Positions 27,713 through 50,063 of a stretch of 64,000 nt of DNA are shown piece after piece (the first letter of the stretch is position 1; each line of letters opens with the position of its first letter). The stretch is taken from IMG/VR virus record IMGVR_UViG_3300042296_001032; one strand, given 5' to 3'. Position numbers and translations under genes: made by a program. The notes below the pieces were generated by a model. The model worked only from the letters and a program-made list of their open reading frames with translations. It ran no database searches and had not been told where the DNA came from. The stretch comes from a virus (taxonomy: Duplodnaviria; Heunggongvirae; Uroviricota; Caudoviricetes).

Positions 27713-27715
27713 ACC

Positions 27716-28274: not shown

Positions 28275-28279
28275 TAAAT

Positions 28280-28360: not shown

Positions 28361-28365
28361 ATTTT

Positions 28366-28614: not shown

Positions 28615-28631
28615 AATTTTTTATTTTTTTG

Positions 28632-29558: not shown

Positions 29559-29624
29559 AATATATTTTATTAATAAATATTTAAGGTTTATTAAAAATCG
29601 AACCTAGTAGTTAATATTTTTTTA

Positions 29625-29697
29625 GTAGTCCCGTCAGGATTCGAACCTGAATCAAAGAGGTAGAAGCTCCTTATGTTAATCCATTACACTACGGGAC
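29625..29697 (-). tRNA. tRNA-Arg (TCT)
   Basis: GGTCCCG-TA-GTGT..ACAT-A-AGGAG-CTTCTAC-CTCTT-TGATT-TCAGG-TTCGAAT-CCTGA-CGGGACT-A. Confidence 0.65.
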
Positions 29698-29781
29698 CCA
29701 AAAATAAAAGAGGTTTCGTCAACGGTGCACTACGACAAGATATTACTAAATTATCTACGTACAAAGTATCCACCTCTTTTG

Positions 29782-29853
29782 TAGTCCTACGGGGAATCGA
29801 ACCCCGCTTTCCAGGATGAAAACCTGACGACCTAACCGATAGTCGATAGGACC
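29782..29853 (-). tRNA. tRNA-Glu (TTC)
   Basis: Acceptor GGTCCTA/TAGGACT. Anticodon arm TCAGG-TTTTCAT-CCTGG. T-arm CGGGG-TTCGATT-CCCCG. Confidence 0.6.
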
Positions 29854-29914
29854 AAATACCACATTATAAAACCATAAAGGTACAACTCTTGTGGTGACGT
29901 TGTTCATTTCACAG

Positions 29915-29997
29915 TACTCGGAGAGGGACTTGAACCCTCACTCCCAATGGGAATTTGATTTTAAGTCAAACGTGTATACCTATTTCACCACCCGAGC
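29915..29997 (-). tRNA. tRNA-Leu (TAA), class II
   Basis: Anticodon arm TTTGA-CTTAAAA-TCAAA. Variable arm TTCCCATTGGGAGTG. T-arm GAGGG-TTCAAGT-CCCTC. Acceptor GCTCGGG/TCCGAGT with terminal G-U pairs. Confidence 0.65.
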
Positions 29998-33714: not shown

Positions 33715-34290
33715 TTACATTAAAAATTTTAAGATTTTTTCTTTAATCCCTGATTGTTTAATTCCCTGTGTTGATTTTGGTGTTAGGACAAAGTTAGTTA
33801 ACCCACTATTAGGATTACCAGAGATTGACCCAAACTTTTCTGACATATCTAAATCATCAACTGCAACCCAATGAGTTACTTCAGGATGTTGCGATAACCA
33901 ATGTTTGATTTCTGCTTGTCTCTCATACTCAAGTTTGGCGTAGTTTCTCAATCTTTGCCATTCTCTTGGGTAGATATCTTTAAACATGTCAGTAACCCCA
34001 ATAGGTCTTTTGATAATTCCTTGACTTTGATAGTAGTCCCCAAGTTCCTCAAGAGAAGCTTGGTATCTCCAATCAGAAGATACCACAATCTCAGCTCCTG
34101 TTTGTTCAAGGATGGTATTTAAAACTTTAATTGCTTTCACATCAAAGTTATCTAATCTACAATCAATTGGTCTATCATCAAATTTAACATCAGGATTTTT
34201 AGAATGATATTTTTTAAATTTTTTCATTCTACTACCCCAATTATCTGCCAAACAGATTACACCATCATTATCAAGAAAAATTACTTTCAT
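33715..34290 (-). CDS. HAD-superfamily hydrolase-like protein (MKVIFLDNDGVI)
   Basis: DxDGV motif I and later acidic DD motifs. Start moved to the internal Met. Confidence 0.45.
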   Translation of the reverse strand: MKVIFLDNDGVICLADNWGSRMKKFKKYHSKNPDVKFDDRPIDCRLDNFDVKAIKVLNTILEQTGAEIVVSSDWRYQASLEELGDYYQSQGIIKRPIGVTDMFKDIYPREWQRLRNYAKLEYERQAEIKHWLSQHPEVTHWVAVDDLDMSEKFGSISGNPNSGLTNFVLTPKSTQGIKQSGIKEKILKFLM

Positions 34291-34291
34291 A

Positions 34292-34681
34292 TTAACTTTT
34301 AATTTCTGTTTCACAATTATCACGCCAATCACTATGACCAACGTTCAAAGGCATACACTTTTCATCAGATTCAAAAATTAACATTAATTCAATTTCGTCA
34401 TCGTCCAAATGAAATTTGAAGTCTTTACCTTTCAAATATTCTATCTTGTCCCTTCCGTTTGTGAAGGTAATATTTTTTTCATCAATACCACATTCTTGAG
34501 CAACATTAAATAGATTTTTATTTTGGTCCAATATCCACCACCAACCAGCTTCTTTGGCTGCTTTATCACTATGTCTACTAGTAACAATGTGGACATCTAA
34601 ACCCCTACTCACCAAATCTTTGGCGTATTCTTGGACACTCTTAAGAGAAAGCGTACCATCAAAATCAAATGAAACTTTCAT
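34292..34681 (-). CDS. HAD-superfamily phosphatase (MKVSFDFDGTLS)
   Basis: DxDGT motif I, T/S motif II, C-terminal DD motif. Confidence 0.5.
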   Translation of the reverse strand: MKVSFDFDGTLSLKSVQEYAKDLVSRGLDVHIVTSRHSDKAAKEAGWWWILDQNKNLFNVAQECGIDEKNITFTNGRDKIEYLKGKDFKFHLDDDEIELMLIFESDEKCMPLNVGHSDWRDNCETEIKS

Positions 34682-34801
34682 TATTTTAATTTTAATCCTA
34701 TTAATAATCTAACCCTTCTCTTGAATCTAATTCTAAGATAACGGTCAACAACTTTTTTAATATCTTTTTTTTGTTGTTTTGTTAATTCTGGTCCCTCAGT
34801 A

Positions 34802-35263
34802 TCATACATAATACTCAATTTTAACTCTTATACAATCTTGTGATTTACCTTCATTCATTAAAAAGTTATTGATATAACCCATGATATTAGCTGAACCTAT
34901 TGGGTTAGCTGAATGAACCACAACTTTAGGGAAATAAAAATTTTTATCCCTTTTTTTCTCAGACCTACTCATGTTGATTCTATGTTCATTCAAAGAATAA
35001 AACAAATTAACTAACCATTTAACCGCGTCGTAACCAGTTTTTTCTTCTATGTTCTCATAATCTAATTTGTAGTTAGGTGAAACATTGTTATAATACTCAT
35101 TCATAGCAGTATCACCCAAGTCATGGTCTAATGAAATTAATTCGATGTTATTCAAACCAACTTTATTTATTAAGTCTACAAATTCATAAAAACTCCTAAC
35201 AACCAACCAATCTTTGTCATTAGGAGTTCTTATGTCATCCAAATATATTTTTACTTTATTCAT
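34802..35263 (-). CDS. Hypothetical protein
   Basis: 153 aa ORF. Confidence 0.5.
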   Translation of the reverse strand: MNKVKIYLDDIRTPNDKDWLVVRSFYEFVDLINKVGLNNIELISLDHDLGDTAMNEYYNNVSPNYKLDYENIEEKTGYDAVKWLVNLFYSLNEHRINMSRSEKKRDKNFYFPKVVVHSANPIGSANIMGYINNFLMNEGKSQDCIRVKIEYYV

Positions 35264-35280
35264 ACCACAAAGATAACCTA

Positions 35281-35976
35281 TTAATCAACAAATTCCAAAT
35301 GATTTGTGTTTTTATCCCATAAAACATTCACAGGTTTATTGCGGAACTCATATCGTCCATTTAACACAGCTGCGTTAATGTAGTGAGTATTTCCATCAAA
35401 CACATAACCATAACCTTCGTGGATGTGTCCAAATACGTGAATTTTTGGTTTGATTACTTCAACTCGTTTCATTAGTTCTTCACAACCAACATTTTGATTT
35501 GGGTATTTTACGTAATCCAATTTGCCAAATGGTGGTCCGTGAGTGATAAGAATGTCAGTACCAACTGTTATCATATCCCACTTCTCTTTTAAAGCTTGTC
35601 CTCTTGGTAAGTTAAATGCCCAATTATGAAATTCAGGTTGCCAAGGAGTACCCCAAACTTTAACCATATCGTCATAATCCTCATCACCAACCAATAAAAG
35701 TTCGTCTTGTAAATATTCAACTGTTTTATAACCAGTTAACAAACCTTTAGTTTCATTAGGTTGGTCTTGGAAACCAAAGTCGTGATTACCTGCTATGAAA
35801 ATTTTGTGGTCATAGTTATCAATTTTATCAAACCACTTAAGAAAATTTTCAATTTCAGTTTTATAACCTCTACTAGTGATATCACCAGCACAGATTAACA
35901 TATCACCACCAGGAAGAAAACCGTTAAGTTTCTCGTGTTTGGTGTGTGTGTCACTAATAAAGGTTAATTTTTTCAT
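35281..35976 (-). CDS. Calcineurin-like metallophosphoesterase
   Basis: Motifs ISDTHTKH, CAGDITSRG, AGNHD, GHIHEG. Confidence 0.7.
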   Translation of the reverse strand: MKKLTFISDTHTKHEKLNGFLPGGDMLICAGDITSRGYKTEIENFLKWFDKIDNYDHKIFIAGNHDFGFQDQPNETKGLLTGYKTVEYLQDELLLVGDEDYDDMVKVWGTPWQPEFHNWAFNLPRGQALKEKWDMITVGTDILITHGPPFGKLDYVKYPNQNVGCEELMKRVEVIKPKIHVFGHIHEGYGYVFDGNTHYINAAVLNGRYEFRNKPVNVLWDKNTNHLEFVD

Positions 35977-36019
35977 AATTACAAATATAAGGGTTATTGT
36001 TTAATTGGCAAAATAAAAG

Positions 36020-36102
36020 TACGTCAGGGGGGAGTCGAACCCCCACATCTTAACGATATTGGTTCCTAAAACCAACGCGTCTACCAATTCCGCCACTGAC
36101 GT
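36020..36102 (-). tRNA. tRNA-Leu (TAG), class II
   Basis: ACGTCAG-TG-GCGGAATTGGTAGACGC-G-TTGGT-TTTAGGA-ACCAA-TATCGTTAAGATGT-GGGGG-TTCGACT-CCCCC-CTGACGT-A. Confidence 0.7.
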
Positions 36103-36103
36103 A

Positions 36104-36180
36104 TGGAGCGGGTGGCGGGATTCAAACCCGCAACTCCCAGCTTGGAAGGCTAGTACTCTAGTCAATTGAGCTACACCCGC
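36104..36180 (-). tRNA. tRNA-Gly (TCC), CCA encoded
   Basis: GCGGGTG-TA-GCTC..GAGT-A-CTAGC-CTTCCAA-GCTGG-GAGTT-GCGGG-TTTGAAT-CCCGC-CACCCGC-T-CCA. Confidence 0.75.
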
Positions 36181-36377
36181 ATTTGTGGGAACCGCACCCC
36201 ACCCTGAACTTGTACTTTGTTCTATTAAGCGTTTTTTCTTTTAAAAATAAATTTTTTTATTCTTTTAATCAATTTATTTTTTTCTCTTTCTCCTCTAAAA
36301 ATTTCTCTATGTGATTCTAATTTACCTGTTAACACTATCTTCATTAATTTCTTTCTTTTTCTTTTGTTATTTTATTG

Positions 36378-36452
36378 TGGAGATACTCGGAATCGAACCG
36401 AGACATCTTCTGAATGCAAATCAGATGTTTTAGCCAATTAAACTATATCCCC
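36378..36452 (-). tRNA. tRNA-Ala (TGC) with a G3:U70 identity pair
   Basis: GGGGATA-TA-GTTT..AAAC-A-TCTGA-TTTGCAT-TCAGA-AGATG-TCTCG-GTTCGAT-TCCGAG-TATCTCC-A. Confidence 0.75.
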
Positions 36453-36457
36453 ATTAG

Positions 36458-36528
36458 TAGCGTGCTGTGGACTCGAACCACCCCTGAAGTTTATGAGACT
36501 CCCATGCAACCAATTACACCTTGCCGCA
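36458..36528 (-). tRNA. tRNA-like gene, CAT anticodon loop (CTCATAA); acceptor halves do not pair
   Basis: Good anticodon and T arms (GGAGT-CTCATAA-ACTTC; GGTGG-TTCGAGT-CCACA), but the 5' TGCGGCA and 3' GCACGCT are not complementary. Pseudogene or unusual tRNA. Confidence 0.3.
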
Positions 36529-36536
36529 ATATAATG

Positions 36537-36606
36537 TACCGAGTATGGGAATTGAACCCACTTGACCATCCTTATGAGAGATAGTTCTTTACCACTAAGC
36601 CTCGGT
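36537..36606 (-). tRNA. tRNA-like gene, CAT anticodon (third CAT tRNA in this array), short D-arm
   Basis: Acceptor ACCGAGG/ACTCGGT (6 of 7 pairs). Anticodon arm TATCT-CTCATAA-GGATG. T-arm GTGGG-TTCAATT-CCCAT. Confidence 0.4.
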
Positions 36607-36614
36607 GTGTTTTG

Positions 36615-36686
36615 TTCCCCCGCCGGGTAACGCTCCCAGCCCCACGGATTAAAAGTCCGTTGCCTACACTTGTTTGCTACGAGGGA
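36615..36686 (-). tRNA. Non-canonical tRNA-Lys (TTT)-like gene (T-loop AGCGTTA instead of TTCGAAT, weak D-arm)
   Basis: Acceptor TCCCTCG/CGGGGGA. Anticodon arm ACGGA-CTTTTAA-TCCGT. T-stem CTGGG/CCCGG. Confidence 0.35.
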
Positions 36687-36748
36687 TTGTGTTTGCCATA
36701 CTTGCCACTTTCCATAATCTGACGTTTTTATTTGTTTGTTATTAATTG

Positions 36749-36823
36749 AGCCTCATGTAGGAATCGAACCCACGGCCTTCTGAGTACAAATCAGACGCTC
36801 TAAGCCAGCTGAGCTAATGAGGC
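36749..36823 (-). tRNA. tRNA-Thr (TGT)
   Basis: GCCTCAT-TA-GCTC..GAGC-G-TCTGA-TTTGTAC-TCAGA-AGGCC-GTGGG-TTCGATT-CCTAC-ATGAGGC-T. Confidence 0.75.
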
Positions 36824-36832
36824 AATTTATTG

Positions 36833-36905
36833 TAGTTCCTACAGGGTTCGAACCTGTGACCTTCTCGATGTAAGCGAGTTGCTCTCCCAGCTGAGCTAAG
36901 GAACT
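36833..36905 (-). tRNA. tRNA-Val (TAC)
   Basis: AGTTCCT-TA-GCTC..GAGC-A-ACTCG-CTTACAT-CGAGA-AGGTC-ACAGG-TTCGAAC-CCTGT-AGGAACT-A. Confidence 0.75.
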
Positions 36906-36946
36906 GTTTAACCAACCTAGGGGTTACTAGGATTTATGGTTAGTTG

Positions 36947-37018
36947 CGGTCCATGCGAGAATCGAACTCGCGGCACATCCGTGACAGGGATGTATGTTGG
37001 CCACTACACCAATGGACC
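36947..37018 (-). tRNA. tRNA-Asp (GTC)
   Basis: GGTCCAT-TG-GTGT..ACAT-A-CATCC-CTGTCAC-GGATG-TGCC-GCGAG-TTCGATT-CTCGC-ATGGACC-G. Confidence 0.75.
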
Positions 37019-37025
37019 ATTTATG

Positions 37026-37115
37026 AGGAAGAGGTAGGATTCGAACCCACGGTACCCTTTCAAAGGTACTTCTGATTTCAAATCAGATGCAATAGACCAA
37101 CTCTGCCACCCTTCC
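37026..37115 (-). tRNA. tRNA-Ser (TGA), class II
   Basis: GGAAGGG..TCTGA-TTTGAAA-TCAGA. Long variable arm AGTACCTTTGAAAGGGTACC. GTGGG-TTCGAAT-CCTAC. Acceptor 3' strand CTCTTCC. Confidence 0.7.
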
Positions 37116-37142: not shown

Positions 37143-37172
37143 AAAAAACCCTGAATCTTTTGGACCCAGGGT
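37143..37172 (-). terminator. Terminator AACCCTG-aatcttttggacc-CAGGGTT with T5 on the minus strand
   Basis: 7 bp stem plus T-run. Confidence 0.45.
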
Positions 37173-37192
37173 TATTCTATATATAGAGTAAA

Positions 37193-37300
37193 TTCAAATC
37201 AACAACTCCAGTATGACAACCCATGTCCGTAGAAAAGTGAATCCACTTTCCCATCAACCGTTTTAACGGTCCCTTGTTTGTATGTCATTGTTGTTTTCAT
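37193..37300 (-). CDS. Small protein (MKTTMTYKQGTVKTVDGKVDSLFYGHGLSYWSC), 35 aa
   Basis: Sits between a TACAAATATA -7 box (37341-37350) and the terminator at 37143-37172. Below the ORF-track cutoff. Confidence 0.3.
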
Positions 37301-37379
37301 TGAATTTATAAAAATTTTTGTTCGTATTAATTAAATATGGTACAAATATAGTAAAAGTTTATTAATTGTCAAACTATTT

Positions 37380-38057
37380 TTATTCTTTTTTTTCTGTTGC
37401 GTATTTTATACCCATAATGGTACCTACAATAGAAAATGCATTTGTTAATAGAATACCAAATATGTTAGACCAAGTAGCACTAATAACTTGAGTGTCTTTG
37501 CCCATTAATAATGTGAAGACATAAACACCAGTTGTTACAAAACCCACACCCATGATTATCCATAGAGCAACTCTAACAATGGTGGAGATTAGTTCATTTT
37601 GAGTTCTTTTTTGTAATAAATCTAAATCGTTTTCGGCCATATCTTTAGCTTTTTCCGCATCTATTCTAGCCTTTTCAGATTTAGCCATTTCATTTTTTAA
37701 CTCTTCAGTTAATCTAAGGTTATCTTCTTTCCACTCATTAAGTTCCTTATTCTGAACCTCATACGTCAACTTGGAATCCTCAACGTCTTTTAAAGTTTCC
37801 TGTAATTCTTCTAGAATTCTTTCGTTTTCATTATTTAAATTAGATAGTTCTTGATTTTGTTTTTGTATTTTTTTTGTCATATCAAGACGCTTCTTCCTTT
37901 TTTCGGTATCTCTTAATTCACAATCTTTTAAATAATCTTTAAATTCTTCATCATCCTCAGAATCAATTAATTTTGTGATATTACCCTCAAGACCTACATT
38001 TTTTTCTTTATATAAATCTATTAAACTTTTTTTAGTAAAACTTTCTATTTTAATCAT
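37380..38057 (-). CDS. Coiled-coil protein with a C-terminal two-TM anchor (last gene of the two-component operon)
   Basis: 225 aa. ATGA overlap with the receiver gene. Confidence 0.55.
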   Translation of the reverse strand: MIKIESFTKKSLIDLYKEKNVGLEGNITKLIDSEDDEEFKDYLKDCELRDTEKRKKRLDMTKKIQKQNQELSNLNNENERILEELQETLKDVEDSKLTYEVQNKELNEWKEDNLRLTEELKNEMAKSEKARIDAEKAKDMAENDLDLLQKRTQNELISTIVRVALWIIMGVGFVTTGVYVFTLLMGKDTQVISATWSNIFGILLTNAFSIVGTIMGIKYATEKKE

Positions 38058-38491
38058 TTGTAAACTTTAAATGGTGCGGTTCTATTTTTATAACCTTCGT
38101 AATCTTTTCTAAATTCTTCTAGTCTTGGTTCTATATCGTCTGATTTAATAATCCAAAACTGTGCTCCAGCTTGTAATGCTTTAGCTTGTTCATCTGGTTC
38201 ATTAGACGATGAAATTATACCAATAACCACATGGTTACCATATTCAAAGTTTATTTTTCTAATTAACTCAATACCATCAAAAGAACTACCAATAATATTT
38301 AAGTCAACAAAAACACATTCTGGTTTATTGTCTTCATTACCACTTTGGAACCATTTTTGGAATAGTTTTGCTGCTTCGTCAGAACTGTTTAACGCGTTTA
38401 AAGACAAACTTATATCTAATAAGGAACACGCATCCTCAAATACTAAATGGAATAAATCCTCGTCATCAACTAATAATATAGAATCAATCAT
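38054..38491 (-). CDS. Stand-alone response-regulator receiver (CheY-like) domain protein
   Basis: ILLVDDE acidic pocket, VFVDLNI phospho-acceptor Asp, IISSS, and WIIK conserved Lys region. No output domain. Confidence 0.65.
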   Translation of the reverse strand: MIDSILLVDDEDLFHLVFEDACSLLDISLSLNALNSSDEAAKLFQKWFQSGNEDNKPECVFVDLNIIGSSFDGIELIRKINFEYGNHVVIGIISSSNEPDEQAKALQAGAQFWIIKSDDIEPRLEEFRKDYEGYKNRTAPFKVYK

Positions 38492-38498
38492 TTTTTTT

Positions 38499-39902
38499 TT
38501 AATTTTTATTTAATTTAACCGTTATTTTTGTACCAGTGTTAATTTTTTCACACATCATACTAAAACCATGTTCTTCTAAAATTGTTTTGGTTATACCTAA
38601 ACCTAAACCAACTTCGGAATTACTCTTTTTATTTAAATATTCACCTGTTGTTCTTTCGAACTCTTTTTGTGAAAATCCAACACCATTATCTTCAATAATT
38701 AAATCATTATTATCCATGTAAATTTTAATTTCTTTATTTTCACTACTATTATATTTTAACCCATTTTTAATTAAATTATCAATAGCGTTCCAAAAAAGAG
38801 TTTCATTTACATTTAGTGTAACTAATTCACTAATTTCTACCTGATTTTTATATGATGTATTTGTTAAGTATTTTAATAAAGATTCTTTTATATCAACCAT
38901 ATTTCTATCTAAAACTACAGTATTTTTCACAAGGTTTGTAAACTCATAAACACTTTTATATACTTTTTGTGTGTGTGCCAAACCATCTTTTATCATTTTA
39001 ATTGAGGGTGTAATTTTTAAGTTATTCATTTCCTCAATTGAAATTCTTTTTTCTAATGACGATAACCCTCTTGGTATATAGGTGTTAATACCTGAATGCA
39101 TGTCGTGTCTAATTATTCTAGCCGCATATTCAAGGTAAGTGTTTTTCTTGTTAATGTCTTTTAATTGGTTTTCGATTTCTATGTCTTGGACTTTAATTGT
39201 TTTTCTTTGTAATAAAACAATAATACCTAAAACCAAAACAGAAAGAACAATTGTGGACCACCATAAATATTTTTTTAAGGTTTTTTTATCGGTAACTAAA
39301 TCATCATTTTTAACACTAAGATTAATGATATTTTTTTCTTTACCTAATATTTGTATAGTACTTGTTTTAGAACTGATAACTTCTTGACTAGCTTTATTTT
39401 TTAATAATTCTTTTTTTTCTTTTAATAGTTTTTGGAGTTTTGACTCTATCTCATCAGCAATTTTTTTTATATCTTTTTTAGATAAATTATCGTATGATTT
39501 TGGTAGGTCATCTAAAAATTTTTGGTCGGCTTTAATACTAGATAATTCTGAGTCACTTAACTCTTGTACGGGTTCTTCTTTAGGTGTGTCAAAAACTTTT
39601 TCAGGTTTTAAATCAACAACATCAATATAGGTACTAACCTTATCTAAATACCAATCTGACTCATCATACATACCTTTATTATAAAAAGAGATACCAATTT
39701 CTTGACATAAGCTTGATTGGTATTTAGTTAATTTTTTATTTGGTTCGTAATTTAATTTTTTAATTAAACTAGTTATACGACTATCACTAGGACATGTAGG
39801 TTCAATCTCTGTTTTTTTGGGGTTATTATCAGTCTGTGAATTTACATTTAAAGAAGTAAAAAAACCCAAAAACATTATTGTTATTAAAATATTTTTTATC
39901 AT
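38499..39902 (-). CDS. Sensor histidine kinase (signal peptide, extracytoplasmic domain, TM, divergent HisKA, HATPase_c)
   Basis: N-box NAIDNLIKNGLKYN, G1 DNGVGF, G2 GLGLGI. H-box is divergent (RIIRHDMHSGINTY instead of SHELRTPL). Confidence 0.7.
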   Translation of the reverse strand: MIKNILITIMFLGFFTSLNVNSQTDNNPKKTEIEPTCPSDSRITSLIKKLNYEPNKKLTKYQSSLCQEIGISFYNKGMYDESDWYLDKVSTYIDVVDLKPEKVFDTPKEEPVQELSDSELSSIKADQKFLDDLPKSYDNLSKKDIKKIADEIESKLQKLLKEKKELLKNKASQEVISSKTSTIQILGKEKNIINLSVKNDDLVTDKKTLKKYLWWSTIVLSVLVLGIIVLLQRKTIKVQDIEIENQLKDINKKNTYLEYAARIIRHDMHSGINTYIPRGLSSLEKRISIEEMNNLKITPSIKMIKDGLAHTQKVYKSVYEFTNLVKNTVVLDRNMVDIKESLLKYLTNTSYKNQVEISELVTLNVNETLFWNAIDNLIKNGLKYNSSENKEIKIYMDNNDLIIEDNGVGFSQKEFERTTGEYLNKKSNSEVGLGLGITKTILEEHGFSMMCEKINTGTKITVKLNKN

Positions 39903-40513
39903 AATTTTGGGGTTAATTTATATGGGAATAATACTATTCTTGGTTTATATTTTGGGGATATATTTAATTCCCAACCAATCTCAGGACTTTCTTCTTTAAG
40001 TAGATTTATTTGTTTCCAATAATATATATTAGTAACATCACCTCTTGTAATTAAACTATAATTACCACTTCCTCTATGCGATACTAACATATACAAACTT
40101 AAATCAATAACTTTAACTGTTGAGTCTTGCCAAGAATAATATAGGTACCCATTATCTATCGACGACGATAAAATCCAATTCTCTAACGTATCTATTTTAG
40201 AAATTAAACTATCGTAATAATTGTTTTGGACGGTTAACAAACTATCCAATTGGTTAATAACACTATCTTTTATTTTAATATCGTTATTTAATAACGTGTT
40301 AGTATCATTAACTAATTTTATTTCTGTTTTATATTTTTGTATTCTAATTTTTTGATTCTCAATTAGTGAATTAATATCATCAGATTGTTTTTTTGTAAGA
40401 ATAACCACAGAATCACCTTTTAATTGTGTCTGGATAGGGTAGGTTGGTTGTGAATACACTATACTTACCATACTTATGAAAAATATGGTTAATAAATTTT
40501 TTAGTTTTATCAT
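39899..40513 (-). CDS. Secreted protein (signal peptide MIKLKNLLTIFFISMVSIVYSQ) inside the two-component operon
   Basis: ATGA overlaps on both sides. Confidence 0.5.
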   Translation of the reverse strand: MIKLKNLLTIFFISMVSIVYSQPTYPIQTQLKGDSVVILTKKQSDDINSLIENQKIRIQKYKTEIKLVNDTNTLLNNDIKIKDSVINQLDSLLTVQNNYYDSLISKIDTLENWILSSSIDNGYLYYSWQDSTVKVIDLSLYMLVSHRGSGNYSLITRGDVTNIYYWKQINLLKEESPEIGWELNISPKYKPRIVLFPYKLTPKL

Positions 40514-42435
40514 TTTAGTTCAATTTTCATTTTTGTCCCTATGTCATTTTTCTCACACGAAATATTAAATTTATGTTCTTCTAAAATAGCTACACATATA
40601 TTAAGCCCTAGACCAGTTCCAGATTCTTTTTGGCCTTCTTTTCTGGTATATGGTTGGGATAAATGAATAAAATCTTTTTGTGTAATCCCTCTACCGTTGT
40701 CTTGTATAATTAGATTACCATCTTCCATATATATTTTAACAAATTTTGTATTACTATCATTATACTTTAACCCATTACGAATTAAATTATCGACTGCGGT
40801 ACAGAATAATGGTTCATTAACTTCTATCGTTGGTAACTCATCAATAATAACTTGACTACTATATGCTGTCGCTGATAAATAATCCTCAAGTATATCTTTT
40901 AAATTACATTCCGTTTTATTTAAAACAACATCTTTCTTTACAAGATTTGTAAATTCGTAAACCCCTTTATATACTTTTTGGGAATGTTTTAAACCCTCTT
41001 TAATCATTTTAATTGGGGCCTCAATTTTTAAAGTTTTAATATCTTCGGGGGTTAATCTTCTTTCTAAAGAACTTAATCCTCTTGGCATATAAGTATTAAT
41101 ACCTGAATGCATATCGTGTCTTAATATTTTAGCCGCATGTTCTAGGTAAGTGTTTTTCTTTTCAATTTCTTTCTTTTGTTCGTAGGAATTGGTGATATCT
41201 GTCGCGATTTTCATAACACGATAAACCTTACCATCTAAACCGATAACTGGATTGTATGTTGCTTGTAGATACACTAAAGAACCGTCTTTTTTAATTCTAG
41301 TAATTTCACCGGTAAATAACACCCCTTCATTTAATTTTTCCCAAAAAAGAGAGTATTCTTCACTTTTTGAGTATTCCTCATCTATAAAAATTCTATGGTG
41401 TTTTCCAACTACTTCATCCTGTAAAGAATATCCCATAGTTTCTAAAAACAAATTATTAGCAAAAATGATGTTTCCTTCTAAATCAAACTCAATAACTGCG
41501 TTAGATTTATTTATCGCGTTCATTCTATTGCGAATTTCAACTTCCTTTTTTTTAAGTTCTGTAACATCTTGTCTTATTGAAGCAAATCCATCCAATTTAC
41601 CATCGGTATCAAAAATTGCTCTAATAAAAGTATCAACGTAATATAATTCTCCTGATTTTCCTTTATTGGTAACAACGTCATTCCATACATCACCTTTCAT
41701 TACCGTTTCATACATTTTACCCCAATATCCATCAGGTTGTAATCCCGAATTAACAATAACATGGTCTTTACCAACTACCTCATCCAAAGACCACCCAGAA
41801 ACATCCTCAAATTTTTTATTAACATATGTAATTTTACCTCTTTTATCAGCAGTAGATATAATTGTCGATACGTCAATAAATTTTTCTGTTTCTTCTATTT
41901 TTTTATTTAAATTGTTTGTTTCTTTTATTGAATAAGCAAAAGTGTATAAAGAAGATAATAATTGAGTAAAATCAACCTCAAAAGAATCCCATTCACGTAA
42001 TGTAAAACTTTCAATACATATAACACCAATAGTTTCCCCAAAATAAATGATAGGTACATCTAACATAGATTTAATACCCAGTGGTTTTAAATAACCATCA
42101 GTAAAACAAGATGTTGCTGGATGTTTTTCAGCATCATTAGCTATTATTATTGGGTTCTTTATTAATTCTTCGAAATACGGTCCAAAATCCTTTTCAAAGA
42201 TTTCTAAACCATCATACCACATATTTTCAGATTTAACATATAATTGTTGGCAAACAATAGATGTTTTATTTTTGTTGTATAACCATATAGAACATCTATC
42301 AACATTAATTGAGTCTACAACTTCTTTAGTTAGAATTTTAGAACCTTCTACTATATCCCCTTTATAAAAAAGAGGGTTATGTGTTTGTGAAATTAAAGTT
42401 TTATTTAATTTATTAATGTAAAAATTTTTATCCAT
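40510..42435 (-). CDS. Cytoplasmic sensor histidine kinase with GAF and tandem PAS domains, same divergent H-box (KILRHDMHSGINTY)
   Basis: N-box NLIRNGLKYN, G1 DNGRGI, G2 GTGLGLNI. PAS-like KRGKITYVNKKFEDVSGWSLDEVVGK repeats. Confidence 0.7.
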   Translation of the reverse strand: MDKNFYINKLNKTLISQTHNPLFYKGDIVEGSKILTKEVVDSINVDRCSIWLYNKNKTSIVCQQLYVKSENMWYDGLEIFEKDFGPYFEELIKNPIIIANDAEKHPATSCFTDGYLKPLGIKSMLDVPIIYFGETIGVICIESFTLREWDSFEVDFTQLLSSLYTFAYSIKETNNLNKKIEETEKFIDVSTIISTADKRGKITYVNKKFEDVSGWSLDEVVGKDHVIVNSGLQPDGYWGKMYETVMKGDVWNDVVTNKGKSGELYYVDTFIRAIFDTDGKLDGFASIRQDVTELKKKEVEIRNRMNAINKSNAVIEFDLEGNIIFANNLFLETMGYSLQDEVVGKHHRIFIDEEYSKSEEYSLFWEKLNEGVLFTGEITRIKKDGSLVYLQATYNPVIGLDGKVYRVMKIATDITNSYEQKKEIEKKNTYLEHAAKILRHDMHSGINTYMPRGLSSLERRLTPEDIKTLKIEAPIKMIKEGLKHSQKVYKGVYEFTNLVKKDVVLNKTECNLKDILEDYLSATAYSSQVIIDELPTIEVNEPLFCTAVDNLIRNGLKYNDSNTKFVKIYMEDGNLIIQDNGRGITQKDFIHLSQPYTRKEGQKESGTGLGLNICVAILEEHKFNISCEKNDIGTKMKIELK

Positions 42436-43352: not shown

Positions 43353-45560
43353 ATGAACTTAATTAAATACCTTTTTATACTAATTTCTTTTGTGACCTAT
43401 TCACAATACTGTCCTTATTTAGGACCAGACCAAATACTACCTTGTGGTGTTGGGTCAACAACATTAACTGCCGATTTTAGTCAATGTGGACCAGGTTCAA
43501 ATCCAAATCAAACAACAAACTACGGTGTTACAAATATTCCTTATGTAACACAAACAAATACTGGTACACAATTATTTATGTCGGATGATTCACAACAAGG
43601 TCCTTTTAATATTGGGTTTACATTTTGTTTCTTTGGACAAACATACAATCAATTTTGGGTTGGTTCTAACGGTTGGATTTCTTTTTCACCGGCACAACCA
43701 ACAACATTTACTTCAGCAACAATACCTAATGGTGCGGGTACAGTACCAAAAAATTGTGTCATGGGTCCTTGGCAAGATTGGCACCCAGGTTTAGGTGGGC
43801 AAATTAGGTACCAAGTTCAAGGTACAGCACCTTGTAGAAAATTAGTTGTTAGTTGGGTTGGTGTCCCTATGTTTTCATGTACAAATTTACTGGGGACATT
43901 TCATACAGTGATTTATGAATCAACAAACGTAATAGAAAATTATATTCAATCAAAACCAAACTGTCTAGCTTGGGCGGGAGGTACCGCGGTTCAAGGATTA
44001 CATAATACCACAGGAACCGTGGCGATAACTGTACCAGGTAGGAATTCCACACAATGGACAGCAAATAATGATGCGTACCGATACACTCCAAGTGGACCAA
44101 CTGTTTTACCTGTACCAACATGGTATATTGTAGGTAACCCAAATCCAATTGGGGTTGGTGCGTCCATTACGGTTACACCACCTGTACAAGGAGCTAATTA
44201 TACTTGTCAACTAGTATATCCTTCTTGTAATGTTGGATGGAATACTTGTAATAGTATTGCCGGTCCAGGACCTGATACGGTGTTTGTACAACCTGGTCCA
44301 CCTAACTTACCACAACCTACAATTACTTTTATTGACCCAACTTGTTATAACTATTGTGATGGTAGTATTAATGTAATCCCTAACGGAACCAATGGTGTCA
44401 CTACTATTTCTTGGAATACTCTACAAACAACTTTTAACCCCACTAACCTTTGTTATGGTAATTATAGTTTTTTAATTACAGACGGTATAGGTTGTACCGT
44501 AACAGGTAATGCAACACTCACTAACCCAGCACAAATAATAATGACACCTATTAGTGGTCCTGATACGGTATGTTATTTATCAACATCAGAAAGTTATAGT
44601 GTACCTTCTATGGGTGTTGGTTACAACTACATATGGTCTACAACACCACAAATAATAAATGGTCAAGGTACTGATAATATAACAACGGATTGGTCATTAG
44701 AACCTAGTGGTTTATATCAAGACTCTATAAGTGTTTATTCTACTAGTCCTATTGGTTGTAATAGTGATACCTCTTACTTCACTACATTTATTTTAAACAT
44801 AAACCCTACAATAGACCCTATTGGTCCTTTTTGTGATTATGATGGTTGTGTAGATTTAGTGGGTTCACCTTTAAATGGTACTTTCTTAGTCAATGGGGTT
44901 CAGACTGATGAATTTTGCCCACAACAAGGTATCATAACAAACAATGATGTAACTTATACATATACACAAAGTAATTGCCCATTTGATACAACAATCAACG
45001 TTATTGTAAACCCACAACCAATCATAACATCTGTAACACCTTCATATGAATTTAACCAACTTTGTGAAGGTGATAGTATTTTTAGAATCTATACAGCTTA
45101 TTCATCTTTATCTGGGTTGTTTGATTGGGTTGTTGAAGGTGATACAATACAAGATAATAGTTTACCTTATGTTTGGAATAATGTTGGTTTTTATACAATT
45201 AGCGTTTCCCAAACGGTTAATGGTTGTGTTTCTAATGAAGAACAAGCTAATATAGCAATACAAGAATGTCCACAAGAATTAATTTATATACCTAATACAT
45301 TTACCCCCGATGGTGATGCTTTCAACAATATTTGGTTACCAATATTTACTGATGGGTTTGATGTCTATGATTATAATTTATTGGTATTCAATAGATGGGG
45401 TGAAACAATTTTTGAATCATACAATCATACCGTTGGTTGGGATGGTACTTATAATAATAAAATGTGTTTTGATGGGATTTATGTTTGGAGAATAATGTAT
45501 GGGTCTGAGTATGATGACTCACGTAAAATGATAACAGGACATTTAACAATTATGCGATGA
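43353..45560 (+). CDS. Large secreted Cys/Thr/Asn-rich protein with a gliding-motility-type C-terminal domain (CHU_C / T9SS type B CTD)
   Basis: Signal peptide MNLIKYLFILISFVTYSQ. C-terminus IYIPNTFTPDGDAFNNIW...VFNRWGETIFES...WDGTYNNK matches the PNAFTPNGDGxND gliding CTD. Confidence 0.65.
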   Translation: MNLIKYLFILISFVTYSQYCPYLGPDQILPCGVGSTTLTADFSQCGPGSNPNQTTNYGVTNIPYVTQTNTGTQLFMSDDSQQGPFNIGFTFCFFGQTYNQFWVGSNGWISFSPAQPTTFTSATIPNGAGTVPKNCVMGPWQDWHPGLGGQIRYQVQGTAPCRKLVVSWVGVPMFSCTNLLGTFHTVIYESTNVIENYIQSKPNCLAWAGGTAVQGLHNTTGTVAITVPGRNSTQWTANNDAYRYTPSGPTVLPVPTWYIVGNPNPIGVGASITVTPPVQGANYTCQLVYPSCNVGWNTCNSIAGPGPDTVFVQPGPPNLPQPTITFIDPTCYNYCDGSINVIPNGTNGVTTISWNTLQTTFNPTNLCYGNYSFLITDGIGCTVTGNATLTNPAQIIMTPISGPDTVCYLSTSESYSVPSMGVGYNYIWSTTPQIINGQGTDNITTDWSLEPSGLYQDSISVYSTSPIGCNSDTSYFTTFILNINPTIDPIGPFCDYDGCVDLVGSPLNGTFLVNGVQTDEFCPQQGIITNNDVTYTYTQSNCPFDTTINVIVNPQPIITSVTPSYEFNQLCEGDSIFRIYTAYSSLSGLFDWVVEGDTIQDNSLPYVWNNVGFYTISVSQTVNGCVSNEEQANIAIQECPQELIYIPNTFTPDGDAFNNIWLPIFTDGFDVYDYNLLVFNRWGETIFESYNHTVGWDGTYNNKMCFDGIYVWRIMYGSEYDDSRKMITGHLTIMR

Positions 45561-45643
45561 ATACAGAAATAGTTATTGCTATACTAACCCCAATATTTGT
45601 TGGTGTTTGGGCCTATATTGAATATAAAAGAAATTAAAGATAG

Positions 45644-45714
45644 AGGCACCAATTGGGTTCGAACCAATGTAAGCGGTTTTGCAGACCGACCCCTAACCAC
45701 TCGGGCATGGTGCC
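45644..45714 (-). tRNA. tRNA-Cys (GCA)
   Basis: GGCACCA-TG-CCCG..GGG-T-TCGGT-CTGCAAA-ACCGC-TTAC-ATTGG-TTCGAAC-CCAAT-TGGTGCC-T. Confidence 0.65.
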
Positions 45715-45723
45715 TTATTATTG

Positions 45724-45797
45724 TACACTCTGATGGACTCGAACCACCAACCCCAACGTCCGTAACGTTGTGCTCTAATCCATTGAGCTAAGAGTGT
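45724..45797 (-). tRNA. tRNA-Arg (ACG)
   Basis: ACACTCT-TA-GCTC..GAGC-A-CAACG-TTACGGA-CGTTG-GGGTT-GGTGG-TTCGAGT-CCATC-AGAGTGT-A. Confidence 0.75.
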
Positions 45798-45802
45798 AAT
45801 AG

Positions 45803-45874
45803 TATGGATGGGTGGAGTTGAACCACCGAGAAGACTGTATAAGAGTCTCATGTTAACCGTTACATCACATCCAC
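45803..45874 (-). tRNA. tRNA-Ile (TAT)
   Basis: GTGGATG-TG-ATGT..ACAT-G-AGACT-CTTATAC-AGTCT-TCTC-GGTGG-TTCAACT-CCACC-CATCCAT-A. Confidence 0.55.
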
Positions 45875-45880
45875 ATATGG

Positions 45881-45967
45881 AGGAAAGGGAGGGATTCGAA
45901 CCCTCGGTACCCTTACAGGTACGACAACTTAGCAGATTGTTGGTTTTAGCCACTCACCCACCTTTCC
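45881..45967 (-). tRNA. tRNA-Ser (GCT), class II
   Basis: GGAAAGG..ACAAT-CTGCTAA-GTTGT. Long variable arm CGTACCTGTAAGGGTACC. GAGGG-TTCGAAT-CCCTC. Acceptor 3' strand CCTTTCC. Confidence 0.7.
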
Positions 45968-46052
45968 TTTTTGGGTGTAAGGACGGTACCGACCCGTCTT
46001 TCCTAGTCCCACAAACTAGTACATCACCTTAATGCTTCAAACACCATATTGT

Positions 46053-46123
46053 TGTCCCACAAGGGTTCGAACCTCGACTCTTCGGTACCAAAAACCGACG
46101 TGTTGCCAATTACACCATAGGAC
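46053..46123 (-). tRNA. tRNA-Gln (TTG)
   Basis: TGTCCTA-TG-GTGT..ACAC-G-TCGGT-TTTTGGT-ACCGA-AGAGT-CGAGG-TTCGAAC-CCTTG-TGGGACA-A. Confidence 0.65.
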
Positions 46124-46131
46124 ATTGTATA

Positions 46132-46206
46132 GTAGGGTAAGAGAGACTCGAACTCTCACGATGCCCACGTCCCAAACGTGGTGACTTGCCAATTAGTCCA
46201 TTACCC
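46132..46206 (-). tRNA. tRNA-Pro (TGG), 7-nt variable loop
   Basis: AGGGTAA-TG-GACT..AGTC-A-CCACG-TTTGGGA-CGTGG-GCATCGT-GAGAG-TTCGAGT-CTCTC-TTACCCT-A. Confidence 0.6.
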
Positions 46207-46210
46207 TATA

Positions 46211-46286
46211 ATGGTGGTGATGGAAGGAATTGAACCTTCGACACAAGGATTTTCAGTCCTTTGCTCTACCAACTGAGCTACATCAC
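46211..46286 (-). tRNA. tRNA-Phe (GAA), CCA encoded
   Basis: GGTGATG-TA-GCTC-AGTTGGTA-GAGC-A-AAGGA-CTGAAAA-TCCTT-GTGTC-GAAGG-TTCAATT-CCTTC-CATCACC-A-CCA. Confidence 0.75.
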
Positions 46287-46291
46287 CATTT

Positions 46292-46364
46292 GCACATCCC
46301 CAAGGCCTCGAACCCTGACCGACTGGGTTGGAACCAGCCGTGCTACCAATTACACCAAAGACGC
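46292..46364 (-). tRNA. tRNA-Trp (CCA)-like gene with a G-U-rich acceptor stem
   Basis: Anticodon arm GCTGG-TTCCAAC-CCAGT. T-arm CAGGG-TTCGAGG-CCTTG. Acceptor GCGTCTT/GGGATGT pairs only with four G-U wobbles. Confidence 0.4.
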
Positions 46365-46394
46365 GTATAAAATATACAGGAAGACATGTTGTTT

Positions 46395-46844
46395 TCAAAT
46401 TTCCGCTTTGATTTTTTTATTTTTACCACAATAAGTGTTTGTTTGTGAATGGCAGTTAGGGCAAACCATCCTTAAATTATCCAATTTGTGGTTGTGTGAG
46501 TCACCATCAATATGGTCTAATTGCATTGATAACTCTATATTATTCCAATCTATTATACCGCAAATATCACACTTATTTTCTTTAACCCCTTCTTTCAATA
46601 ACCTTTTTTTTAATTTTAAGGTTTGGTAGTACGGATGTTTACCTTCTATAATCTCGTTTAAAGGTATTTTTTGTTGTTCAGGTTTAAAGTTTTTATCTTT
46701 CCAGGCTAAACCAATTTTTTTTGCCCTTCTCCATAATGACACAGTAGTCATTTTTAATTCTGCGGATGCCTGATGTAGTGTGTCGTATTTGTCATATGCC
46801 AACTTTATTTCTTCATCAGTAATTTTAACTTCTCTCTGTTTCAT
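46395..46844 (-). CDS. HNH homing endonuclease with an N-terminal DNA-binding region, inserted in the tRNA array
   Basis: DHIDGDSHNHKLDNLRMVCPNCHSQ HNH motif. Flanked by tRNA-Trp-like and tRNA-Tyr-like genes. Confidence 0.65.
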   Translation of the reverse strand: MKQREVKITDEEIKLAYDKYDTLHQASAELKMTTVSLWRRAKKIGLAWKDKNFKPEQQKIPLNEIIEGKHPYYQTLKLKKRLLKEGVKENKCDICGIIDWNNIELSMQLDHIDGDSHNHKLDNLRMVCPNCHSQTNTYCGKNKKIKAEI

Positions 46845-46910
46845 AATATTCTTTTATTATAAATATAACAAACAGAGTTAAAATCCACTTATATTACATT
46901 TATTTTTTTT

Positions 46911-46994
46911 TGTGGGACCTGGTGGACTCGAACCACTCCCGCGAGGACGAAATTTACAGTTTCGCTGCCGTATCCAAACGACTTTCAGTTCCCA
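46911..46994 (-). tRNA. tRNA-Tyr (GTA)-like class II gene, imperfect acceptor/D region
   Basis: Anticodon arm CGAAA-CTGTAAA-TTTCG. Variable arm TCCTCGCGGGAG. T-loop TTCGAGT. The acceptor pairs 6 of 7 only after a 1-nt shift. Confidence 0.35.
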
Positions 46995-47123
46995 AGTTAG
47001 GAAAGGGGAAGATGGTTGTGTGGACATCCCCTTTTACGATTGGCTTTACTCGGACAGTTACAACTCCGATATAACCACGACTACTGACACGTTAACGTTA
47101 TATCATTCCCCAATCAACCTCAG

Positions 47124-47195
47124 CGACTCAGACAGGACTTGAACCTGTAACGGCCACATTAACAGTGTGGAGCTCTACCAATTGAGCTACTGAGT
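47124..47195 (-). tRNA. tRNA-Asn (GTT)
   Basis: GACTCAG-TA-GCTC-AATTGGTA-GAGC-T-CCACA-CTGTTAA-TGTGG-CCGTT-ACAGG-TTCAAGT-CCTGT-CTGAGTC-G. Confidence 0.75.
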
Positions 47196-47236
47196 CATTA
47201 CTAATACCAATACATCAAAGAACTTTTTCTTTTTTG

Positions 47237-47310
47237 TCGATGTGGGAGGGCTCGAACCTCCGACCTACACCTTATCAGAGTGTCTATCTAACCAACTGAT
47301 ATACACATCG
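47237..47310 (-). tRNA. tRNA-Ile (GAT)
   Basis: CGATGTG-TA-TATC-AGTTGGTTA-GATA-G-ACACT-CTGATAA-GGTGT-AGGTC-GGAGG-TTCGAGC-CCTCC-CACATCG-A. Confidence 0.75.
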
Positions 47311-47934: not shown

Positions 47935-48363
47935 TTAATAATTTACGTTTATTAACCCAGGGTAAACCCACCAACATCTATTATCACACATATTAGCAAT
48001 CTCCCCATTTTTTTCACCACTAAAATTGTCACTAATCCCATCATGTCCATTAGTACTTTCATAAAATTTTAATAATAATACTTCTACCTCTTTAGTATAA
48101 CAACCATTTGTTTTTACCCTCATTTTTGGTACCACTTCTACTAATATTACTTTTACTTCAGATTCATAATCAACATCATCTGGGAAGTATTCATCAACAC
48201 AATCATCAGTCATAACTTCAGATTTAAGATTTATTGTAAAAGATTCACCTTTTAATTTGTTATGATATAAATCCCAACCATCTATAATTGGTGGTATCTC
48301 ATCTAGCCATGCCCAATCTGGGTCAGTAGATTCTTTTAATATTTTTTTAATTAAATTTCTCAT
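47935..48363 (-). CDS. Leader-family protein (MRNLIKKILKESTDPDWAWLDEIPPIIDGW)
   Basis: 142 aa. Leader plus ESTDPxWxWL module. Confidence 0.6.
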   Translation of the reverse strand: MRNLIKKILKESTDPDWAWLDEIPPIIDGWDLYHNKLKGESFTINLKSEVMTDDCVDEYFPDDVDYESEVKVILVEVVPKMRVKTNGCYTKEVEVLLLKFYESTNGHDGISDNFSGEKNGEIANMCDNRCWWVYPGLINVNY

Positions 48364-49739: not shown

Positions 49740-50044
49740 TGACCCTCGTCATTTTTGTCACCACTTTTCTTATGTTTTTTACGAATAATCAATCTCATTA
49801 AATTAACTATTTTGTTAAAATAAATAAATTCCGCTGATTCAGGATTTATTTCATAAGTTTTATTAAAGTGGTTTATTAGTTTAACAGCATTAATTAAATC
49901 CTCCCTATTTTTAACAGAAAGAACTAATTTTTTTAATCTATTAAAAGCCTCATCTTTTGATTCAGTTTTTTTAAATTTAAAAAATCCCAATAACAATAAA
50001 AATCTATTGAAAAGGTTATTTTGCACGTTAAATTCATTTAACAA
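49706..50044 (-). CDS. Hypothetical basic protein
   Basis: 112 aa ORF. Overlaps the next start by 34 nt. Confidence 0.4.
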   Translation of the reverse strand: MLNEFNVQNNLFNRFLLLLGFFKFKKTESKDEAFNRLKKLVLSVKNREDLINAVKLINHFNKTYEINPESAEFIYFNKIVNLMRLIIRKKHKKSGDKNDEGQWKCEIELERY

Positions 50045-50063
50045 TAAATATCGGCAAAATTAA

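Follow-up and report, generated by a model that had tools for sequence, protein, structure and literature searches.

A 64,000-nt stretch of the IMG/VR virus record IMGVR_UViG_3300042296_001032 (Caudoviricetes), hereafter the window (64 kb), contained five minus-strand open reading frames (ORFs) that filled positions 37380-42435 and resembled a two-component signalling system: two histidine kinases (HK1 and HK2), a stand-alone receiver (RR), a protein with a signal-like N-terminus (sec204) and a coiled-coil membrane protein (cc225). The coordinates of these genes and of other features of the window are given in Table 1. Domains were called with Pfam and NCBIfam, and membrane segments by hydropathy. 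An initial annotation, made from the nucleotide sequence, had placed five genes of these kinds at 37380-42435, and the ORFs, the Pfam analysis of each gene and the hydropathy profiles agreed with it. The same annotation described all five genes as joined by ATGA overlaps; this was true of three of the four junctions, while HK2 and RR were separated by a 7-nt gap. The ORF preceding HK1 stopped 24 nt before HK1, and no terminator-like site was found on the minus strand inside the five-gene unit. A scan for sigma-70-type promoters returned fewer matches than in shuffled sequence and was hence uninformative; Bacteroidota promoters differ from the sigma-70 type.

Table 1. Coordinates of the signalling genes and of other features of the window
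Feature	Position	Strand	Details
HK1	40510-42435	-	641 aa; GAF, two PAS, HATPase_c
HK1 GAF domain, aa 33-162	41950-42339	-	PF01590, 1e-12
HK1 tandem PAS, aa about 190-415	41191-41868	-	PAS_9, PAS_3, PAS_4, TIGR00229
HK1 H-box LRHDMHSGINTYMPRGL	41074-41124	-	predicted phospho-acceptor His440, codon 41116-41118
HK1 ATP-binding domain	40516-40806	-	N, G1 and G2 boxes; HATPase_c 1.7e-13
sec204	39899-40513	-	204 aa; no domain
HK2	38499-39902	-	467 aa; HATPase_c only
HK2 predicted phospho-acceptor His266	codon 39105-39107	-	
RR	38054-38491	-	145 aa; receiver
RR phospho-acceptor Asp63	codon 38303-38305	-	
cc225	37380-38057	-	225 aa; no domain
cc225 hairpin of two transmembrane segments, aa 155-217	37407-37595	-	segments at aa 155-186 and 199-217 (hydropathy)
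Elements after cc225	37147-37372	-	near-consensus sigma-70-like promoter (TTGACA, 16 nt, TATATT), 33-codon ORF, strong terminator-like hairpin; then a tRNA cluster
tRNA clusters	23544-29997, 36019-37115, 45643-47310	-	
Weaker tRNA-like Rfam matches (n = 4)	24002-24110, 28280-28360, 28632-28737, 36537-36606		
tmRNA	15526-15918	-	Rfam, 99 bits; unusual predicted tag ANATVGHFVTEGATVAA
Large paralogous ORFs (three)	6795-8213 (-), 14090-15286 (-), 16587-18038 (+)		weak phrog_17056 and phrog_28193 matches; no Pfam family
HAD_SAK_2 protein	33715-34341	-	
Small HAD-like protein	34292-34681	-	
cREC-type receiver-like protein	34802-35263	-	motifs IYLDD, SLDHDLG, VHSANP; Pfam cREC_REC match assigned to the ORF by motifs
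Metallophosphoesterase	35281-35976	-	
T9SS type-B-sorted surface protein	43353-45560	+	735 aa, PKD-like repeats; CHU_C 2.5e-12, TIGR04131 3.3e-11; beside HK1, outside the signalling module
ORFs following the capsid-like ORF	49706-50044, 48363-49739	-	112 aa; 458 aa (no Pfam family)
Gp23-type capsid match	50064-50489	-	141-aa ORF, assigned by motif WSPELAQDLQAYHGIDAEAEL
Mom-family genes (two, tandem)	51606-53133	-	1e-54 and 1e-22
DUF2828/DUF7788 protein	53899-55341	-	phrog_850 'RNA-binding protein', 4.5e-149
DnaJ, full-length	57634-58566	-	
196-aa protein, SEGCQV motif	63186-63776	-	21 kb upstream of HK1, same strand
ORF adjoining the 196-aa gene	63786-63998	-	

Kinases, receiver and membrane protein

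HK1 had no membrane segment. Its PAS domains spanned aa 195-295 and 313-415 (PAS_9, 7.7e-21), and its GAF domain was kept in some relatives and missing in others (forms of 364-391 aa). Flavin-based light sensing of the LOV type was considered for the PAS domains and rejected: the photoactive Cys (GxNCRFLQ) was absent, the PAS domains reading GKDHVIVNSG and GKHHRIFID where LOV has GRNCRFLQG, and the NCBIfam YtvA and LOV-kinase matches of HK1 lay far below cut-off. HK2 (HATPase_c, 3.4e-11) comprised a signal-like N-terminus, approximately 190 extracytoplasmic residues, one clear transmembrane segment (aa 211-238) and a DHp-CA kinase core. The protein encoded between the kinases, sec204, had a hydrophobic, signal-like N-terminal segment (aa 1-19) and belonged to no Pfam, NCBIfam or PHROG family. 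A single-sequence AlphaFold2 model was confident for a helix at 41-116, with the pLDDT of the C-terminal part below 50; sec204 is predicted to be secreted or periplasmic and to combine a long helix with a C-terminal part rich in beta structure.

The kinase cores of HK1 and HK2 were 57% identical (4e-80), with the H-boxes LRHDMHSGINTYMPRGL and IRHDMHSGINTYIPRGL, respectively. Their DHp helices were approximately 81-82% identical (hand count on the pairwise alignment), compared with the 57% of the whole core. Pfam HisKA (PF00512) gave no match at E ≤ 0.01 for either kinase, nor for the clade members P0121, P0122, P0156 and P0166, which we attribute to a diverged sequence and not to a lost fold. 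When 1.84 billion cluster representatives were searched with the kinase core (HMMER), 92 matches fell below 1e-30 and 341 below 1e-10. By falling score, the H-box read RHDMHSGINTY(I/M)PRG down to approximately 40% identity, then RHDLKSNINN and RHDLRGSLDG, and finally ASHDLKEPLR or SHDLKSPVRS. The homologues P0262, P0265 and P0268, which read ASHDL(K/R)EPLR, matched Pfam HisKA over the H-box stretch, and alignment with their phospho-histidine identifies the first His of the block (His440 in HK1, His266 in HK2) as the probable phospho-acceptor. The second His occupied the R/K position of SHELRTPL and varied among H, N, Y, K and R.

Thirty-one diverse aligned cores, with identities as low as 35%, shared R-H-D, Gly at His+5, Asn at His+7 and Pro at His+11 without exception, and N141, D161-N-G-x-G165 and G190-x-G192-L (N, G1 and G2 boxes; core numbering) were likewise invariant. 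The normal N, G1 and G2 boxes noted in the initial annotation are therefore a property of all 31 cores, as is the H-box His, whose conservation in homologues that annotation had left to be checked. The solved structures closest to the core were HK853 (profile E 1.3e-13) and QseC. Judged from sequence, the RHDMHSGINTY block is a diverged HisKA H-box of a distinct subfamily that Pfam HisKA misses. A new DHp or phospho-acceptor class was rejected, as the H-box grades continuously into classical HisKA. The clade carrying the block comprised at least 64 clusters at 50% identity, and its sensor regions varied (soluble PAS or GAF, membrane-anchored and periplasmic forms).

RR matched Response_reg (9e-9; 35.9 bits versus a cut-off of 30.2) and not cREC_REC, adjoined the kinases and had no membrane segment. 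The cREC receivers of jumbo phages have never been linked to histidine kinases (PMC7824862). D9, D10, D63, S94-96 and K116 were invariant in 51 unique RR sequences, even in the one from a 67%-GC contig. No DNA-binding or enzymatic output domain was found in RR: in keeping with the initial annotation, which had pointed to a receiver without a DNA-binding output, the 145 aa consisted of the receiver and a 27-aa C-terminal tail (aa 119-145) with EPRLE-F-D-T-F-Y invariant. At saturated dS, the ratio of non-synonymous to synonymous substitution (dN/dS) was approximately 0.04 in RR and 0.15 in cc225. The invariance of the catalytic residues in both kinases and receiver favours the functional kinase system proposed initially, and the window very probably carries an intact, phage-borne kinase-receiver system.

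The membrane protein cc225 comprised a conserved N-terminal domain (N-domain, aa 1-70; motifs LEGNIxK and RKKRLxxTKQxQxQN in the alignment), a coiled coil of variable length and the C-terminal hairpin. The hairpin was near-invariant, with a TWSN loop and FGILLTNAFSIVGTIMGxKY in the second transmembrane segment. An AlphaFold2 model (pLDDT 77, pTM 0.29) placed a single helix at 37-185, continuing into the first transmembrane segment, plus the second transmembrane segment. The sole match in a fold search with this model was an uncharacterised protein of an uncultured phage (BFVD). Approximately 6,000 unannotated homologues of cc225 were present in the protein database.

Conserved core and distribution

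Searches of 83 related loci (±8 kb, about 16 kb) with the window proteins (tblastn) recovered HK1 (63-87% identity), RR (82-95%) and cc225 (47-80%) essentially everywhere, and de novo clustering of all ORFs returned only three universal families. HK2 and sec204 were found in approximately 11 of the 83 loci, and their position was in every case between HK1 and RR; across related loci, HK2 had a frequency of about 12%. Only loci with HK2 had a detectable sec204 (26-49% identity), and two HK2 loci (L029 and L047) had no detectable copy. The sequences thus identify a kinase, RR and cc225 as the conserved unit, with sec204 and HK2 as an optional insert; the five-gene operon of the initial annotation was complete in the window, but its conserved part is this smaller unit. 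A further set comprised 79 more divergent loci (30-57% GC). cc225 followed RR in 80/81 loci of the first set and in 78/78 of the divergent set with room for it. The best HK1 match ended directly at RR in 61 of the 70 divergent loci with room, and the tabulated positions suggest that the remaining nine carry the sec204-HK2 insert at the HK1-RR position.

A scan with the RR alignment placed the module on at least 473 IMG/VR viral contigs of up to 430 kb, and a metagenome scan with the cc225 N-domain added at least 430 loci, marine ones included. IMG/VR contigs as long as 322 kb carried homologues of the kinase core, and so did an ENA scaffold of 303 kb (L001), where T4_Y16D, T4 RNA ligase 1, Tad6 and a GH19 endolysin were neighbours. 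On the same scaffold, a NUMOD3 homing-endonuclease gene lay between HK2 and RR (L001 13134-13856), and the module thus tolerates the insertion of a selfish element. The flanks of the module were otherwise highly variable, hyperplastic and rich in homing endonucleases. Since the arrangement recurs in hundreds of contigs under purifying selection, it is not a product of chance. Neither the kinase core nor RR was found in 50,697 GenBank phage records, in which DNA matches were tRNA-sized only.

The RHDMHSGINTY pattern occurred at eight loci in 185,579 species genomes, all of them metagenome-assembled genomes (MAGs) with six phylum-level labels; one MAG contig with the module had 67% GC. Six of the loci, under five phylum-level labels, looked like phage contigs: L084 and L085 had phage-type neighbours, L088 mostly orphan ORFs, and for L086, L089 and L091 a phage origin was inferred solely from their carrying the module. 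Two loci were bacterial, with kinase-receiver pairs 55-59% and 61-66% identical to the window proteins. L090, on a 967-kb contig of a Bacteroidota chromosome, carried the pair without cc225, next to TauE, a SoxA-type cytochrome, TetR and ABC1. L087, on a Bacteroidetes MAG contig (CANIVF010000058.1), carried the pair next to a 1,775-aa type IX secretion system (T9SS) surface protein and CreD-like, HD and HAD genes. After its RR, L087 encoded a 349-aa protein (8041-9090) that lacked the hairpin and joined the cc225 N-domain, with a short coiled coil, to a classical HisKA (SHNLRAPI) and HATPase_c. Sequence comparison indicates that the kinase-receiver family is nearly phage-specific. The suggestion in the initial annotation that the divergent H-box marks a dedicated family was largely upheld by the size of the clade and by its scarcity in species genomes and GenBank phages; the block proved to be a diverged HisKA, and two of its occurrences were bacterial.

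Viral setting and lysis-gene neighbourhood

The tRNA genes of the window numbered 24 and were confined to the minus strand, and a tmRNA was also present. Nine of its ten largest ORFs had no Pfam family, and no ribosomal or other housekeeping operon was seen in the window. ORF matches comprised the Gp23 major capsid protein, Mom (twice), many HNH endonucleases, cREC_REC, HAD_SAK_2, L5_gp82 and PHROG phage families, among them an 'endolysin' match for which the source ORF was not assigned. These features, and the fact that IMG/VR contigs of 300-430 kb carry the module alongside T4-type genes, identify the window as viral and bear out the phage-like genome described initially. The capsid-like gene at 48363-50489 may have been divided or shortened, or an insertion may interrupt it. 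The tandem Mom-family genes suggest DNA base modification, and the three large paralogues appear to be an orphan family that expanded inside the window. A homologue of the T9SS-sorted protein lay directly upstream of HK1 in 9/83 related loci; a phage protein with T9SS type-B sorting implies that host type IX secretion is used and that the host belongs to the Bacteroidota. The nearest GenBank relatives of the 196-aa protein, found in Bacteroides and crAss-like phages and annotated as hypothetical, were a second host clue, and both point to Bacteroidota.

A lysis gene was the most frequent companion of the module in its relatives. An endolysin with PG_binding_1 and GH19 domains, the commonest neighbour family after the module itself, adjoined it in 60/83 loci (32/45 with distinct cc225), within a 16-kb locus corresponding to approximately 5% of a 300-kb genome. 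The endolysin gene was located downstream of cc225 on the same strand in 23 loci (median gap 15 nt) and upstream of HK1 in 37 (median gap 289 nt), in at least 10 different arrangements. In L013, cc225 was followed by the lysin gene and a 55-aa, two-transmembrane holin-like gene. Within 1-2 kb of the module, the divergent set contained GH19 (16 loci) or a homologue of the 196-aa protein (23 loci); small transmembrane proteins accompanied these neighbours, as did a lipoprotein or coiled-coil gene in L157. Homologues of the 196-aa protein were located within a few kb of the module in 19/83 and 23/79 related loci. No PDB sequence match was obtained for this protein.

Other neighbours recurred as well. 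DnaK was located approximately 2.4 kb downstream of the module in 36 related loci (e.g. L020 10166-12028). A metallophosphoesterase was a neighbour in 36/81 loci and overlapped HK1 in L002 and L003. It was considered as a dedicated phosphatase of the pathway and rejected: in the window its neighbours are cREC, HAD and HAD_SAK_2, and in L001 they are RNA ligases and a kinase, company that assigns it to an RNA-repair or NAD-conflict module. The four-gene block of the window (33715-35976) resembles a conflict system known from jumbo phages, of the cyclic-phosphate or RNA-repair kind (PMC7824862). Its cREC-type protein is a second receiver-fold protein near the two-component module, unrelated to RR.

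Proposed pathway and comparison with known systems

We hypothesize that the module is a functional, phage-encoded, branched two-component pathway that tunes lysis via cc225, a reading to which we assign an even chance. Soluble HK1 would read an intracellular cue via its GAF and two PAS domains. Envelope-facing HK2, probably partnered by the co-inserted sec204, would provide a second input. Both kinases would autophosphorylate on the first His of RHDMHSGINTY, and phosphotransfer from both would converge on Asp63 of a single stand-alone RR. DHp helices carry partner specificity in this kinase class. Since those of HK1 and HK2 are so alike, and since the module contains a single receiver gene, it is probable that both kinases serve one receiver.

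Lacking an output domain, RR would act post-translationally by binding a partner. The cc225 N-domain is the best candidate, because the two genes overlap, because they co-occur universally in viral loci and because the L087 N-domain appears as an input module after a receiver; the L087 fusion would make the N-domain a modular unit for input, placed after the receiver. Whether RR acts on this domain is, in our judgement, evenly balanced. The signal would then pass through the coiled coil into the membrane hairpin of two helices and determine the timing or the occurrence of envelope breach, with cc225 as a holin-modulating or antiholin-like protein. Lysis is the most likely output in view of the embedding of the module in the lysis gene cluster of relatives, and this gene neighbourhood makes lysis control a tentative proposal, somewhat short of probable. 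The most specific version, in which abundant aquatic jumbo phages own a phosphorelay that reads the internal state of the host and, in some phages, the envelope, and that gates lysis post-translationally via a new cc225 input domain and a membrane hairpin acting on the holin-endolysin pathway, is doubtful.

Several observations weigh against this pathway, in which every step past domain identification is inference. cc225 belonged to no Pfam, NCBIfam or PHROG family and had no detectable similarity to holins or antiholins, and its near-invariant second transmembrane segment is unlike typical holins, which evolve fast. The separate small holin-like gene in some relatives means that cc225 is not needed as the holin itself. 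No GH19 lysin was found in the window, where cc225 is followed by a tRNA cluster and the candidate lysis genes lie 21 kb away. The 196-aa protein is possibly a cell-wall hydrolase, the lysin of relatives, but this is unconfirmed. Lysis timing, one of the roles offered in the initial annotation, therefore draws support from the relatives with an adjacent endolysin and not from the window, where this adjacency is absent. Given the hyperplastic flanks, part of the module-lysin linkage could reflect shared ancestry. The L087 fusion had no close relative in IMG/VR, and fusion of the N-domain was not recurrent: among 58 delimited ORFs in 80 metagenome loci, the 51 complete ones all had the two-transmembrane hairpin and none was kinase-like.

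Instead of controlling lysis, a captured Bacteroidota pathway could plug into, or jam, a homologous host system and thereby reprogram host physiology, for example through a phage RR acting on a host kinase with a cc225 N-domain or a phage cc225 titrating a host RR. The two chromosomes with the same kinase-receiver pair (L090 and L087), the cc225 N-domain on the L087 kinase and the Bacteroidota host clues of the window (the T9SS protein and the Bacteroides and crAss-like homologues) fit such mimicry of host signalling. However, two bacterial contexts among 185,579 species genomes are few, and the RR of L090 had two closer relatives, the rest of its approximately 3,000 matches being the phage-type 143-aa protein. 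The range of GC in the viral loci, together with the 67%-GC MAG contig, implies that most hosts are probably without the pathway, and the phage's own kinase, receiver and partner look self-contained. We consider host mimicry unlikely.

Surveillance of the envelope, for superinfection exclusion or surface remodelling, would have HK2 and sec204 sense a second phage or envelope damage, and RR and cc225 alter the membrane or T9SS export. It would account for the orientation of HK2 and sec204 towards the envelope, for cc225 as an inner-membrane protein and for the T9SS type-B-sorted protein beside HK1 in the window and nine relatives. Yet HK2 and sec204 are missing from approximately 88% of modules, so envelope sensing cannot be the core function, and the T9SS gene was linked in 9/83 loci as against 60/83 for the endolysin; this explanation is very unlikely.

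The initial annotation had also allowed for a bacterial chromosome region, and an ordinary host two-component system on mis-binned DNA or an integrated element could explain the eight bacteria-labelled MAG contigs with the motif, two of them truly chromosomal. When checked, the window was found to be viral: the tRNAs, tmRNA, Gp23 fragment, Mom, HNH, cREC and orphan ORFs, the module on at least 473 IMG/VR contigs, the neighbours T4_Y16D, T4 RNA ligase and Tad6, and the phage-like character of the six other MAG loci make a bacterial origin highly improbable. Least probable of all is decaying cargo, with pseudokinases or a non-functional hitch-hiker module, to which the failure of Pfam HisKA on the DHp domain and the variable, homing-endonuclease-rich flanks might point, but every catalytic residue is invariant, dN/dS is 0.04-0.15 and the module persists in a changing neighbourhood on at least 473 viral contigs.

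Phage lysis timing is usually credited to holin clocks and a few special sensors, such as T4 lysis inhibition, arbitrium and the quorum-sensing receptors of temperate phages. A complete, conserved module would show that large phages take decisions by environment with canonical bacterial signalling hardware of their own. Current annotation pipelines miss its parts: the HisKA subfamily, the highly conserved, tailed stand-alone receiver and the unannotated membrane protein family of approximately 6,000 members. Two-component systems and isolated phage kinases are already known, and the chemistry of the signalling is of the standard kind; the novelty lies in the HisKA subfamily, in a membrane effector that is coupled to a receiver through a new input domain, and in the viral, lysis-linked setting. 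PHROGs holds a few kinase-like and receiver-like families. Our literature search, reviews of jumbo phages included, turned up no account of a complete, conserved module of kinase, receiver and effector in jumbo phages of the virulent type. A survey of jumbo phages discussed the cREC domain alone and no such module (PMC7824862).

The closest biochemical model is the HK853-RR468 pair of Thermotoga maritima, which shares the DHp hairpin with its phospho-His, HATPase_c with N, G1 and G2 boxes, and a stand-alone receiver with DD/D/(S,T)/K residues. Unlike HK853, the phage kinases have the H-box RHDMHSGINTYxPRG, with Gly for the usual Pro at His+5, an invariant Pro at His+11 and an estimated three or so extra residues before helix 2; the present system is viral and couples its receiver to a dedicated coiled-coil protein in the membrane. 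The Clostridioides difficile phage phiCDHM1 carries an agr locus with the histidine kinase AgrC, which was read as a phage joining host signalling (PMC3901668). That phage is temperate and encodes agrB, agrD and agrC without a response regulator, with a kinase of another family, whereas one or two kinases, a receiver and a putative effector occur here in large T4-like phages known from metagenomes. Moraphages are large freshwater Bacteroidota phages with DnaJ and DnaK and without tRNA synthetases (PMC12619734). DnaJ in the window, DnaK in relatives, T4-like genes, aquatic sources and the Bacteroidota clues constitute a circumstantial likeness to them; kinases or two-component genes were not mentioned for moraphages in that study.

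The remaining parallels concern the output. LytR is a DNA-binding transcription regulator with a LytTR domain, and LytS is a kinase of another family with multiple transmembrane segments. LytSR and LytST control the holin-like Lrg and Cid proteins of Firmicutes (PMC3507848) and, like the proposed pathway, tie a two-component system to holin- or antiholin-like membrane proteins and murein-hydrolase activity. They differ in that the receiver described here has no output domain and belongs to a viral system with presumed protein-protein coupling; no LytTR or 5TM-Lyt domain was found in the five proteins with Pfam and NCBIfam. Single-domain receivers of the DivK type regulate kinases such as DivL and PleC by binding them. 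The L087 order, a receiver followed by a kinase with the cc225 N-domain as input, suggests a similar receiver-to-kinase step, with no homology to DivL or PleC.

In T4, lysis inhibition acts through the holin T and the antiholins RI and RIII. The likeness lies in signal-dependent, post-translational timing of lysis through membrane proteins, a role suggested for cc225 by its neighbourhood alone. T4 differs in its direct periplasmic protein-protein sensing without phosphotransfer, and its proteins have no sequence or fold similarity to those described here. If the proposed pathway is correct, it would amount to a two-component counterpart of T4 lysis inhibition and would define a new class of receiver-to-membrane effector, which a few Bacteroidota would share in a form where the cc225 input domain drives a kinase.

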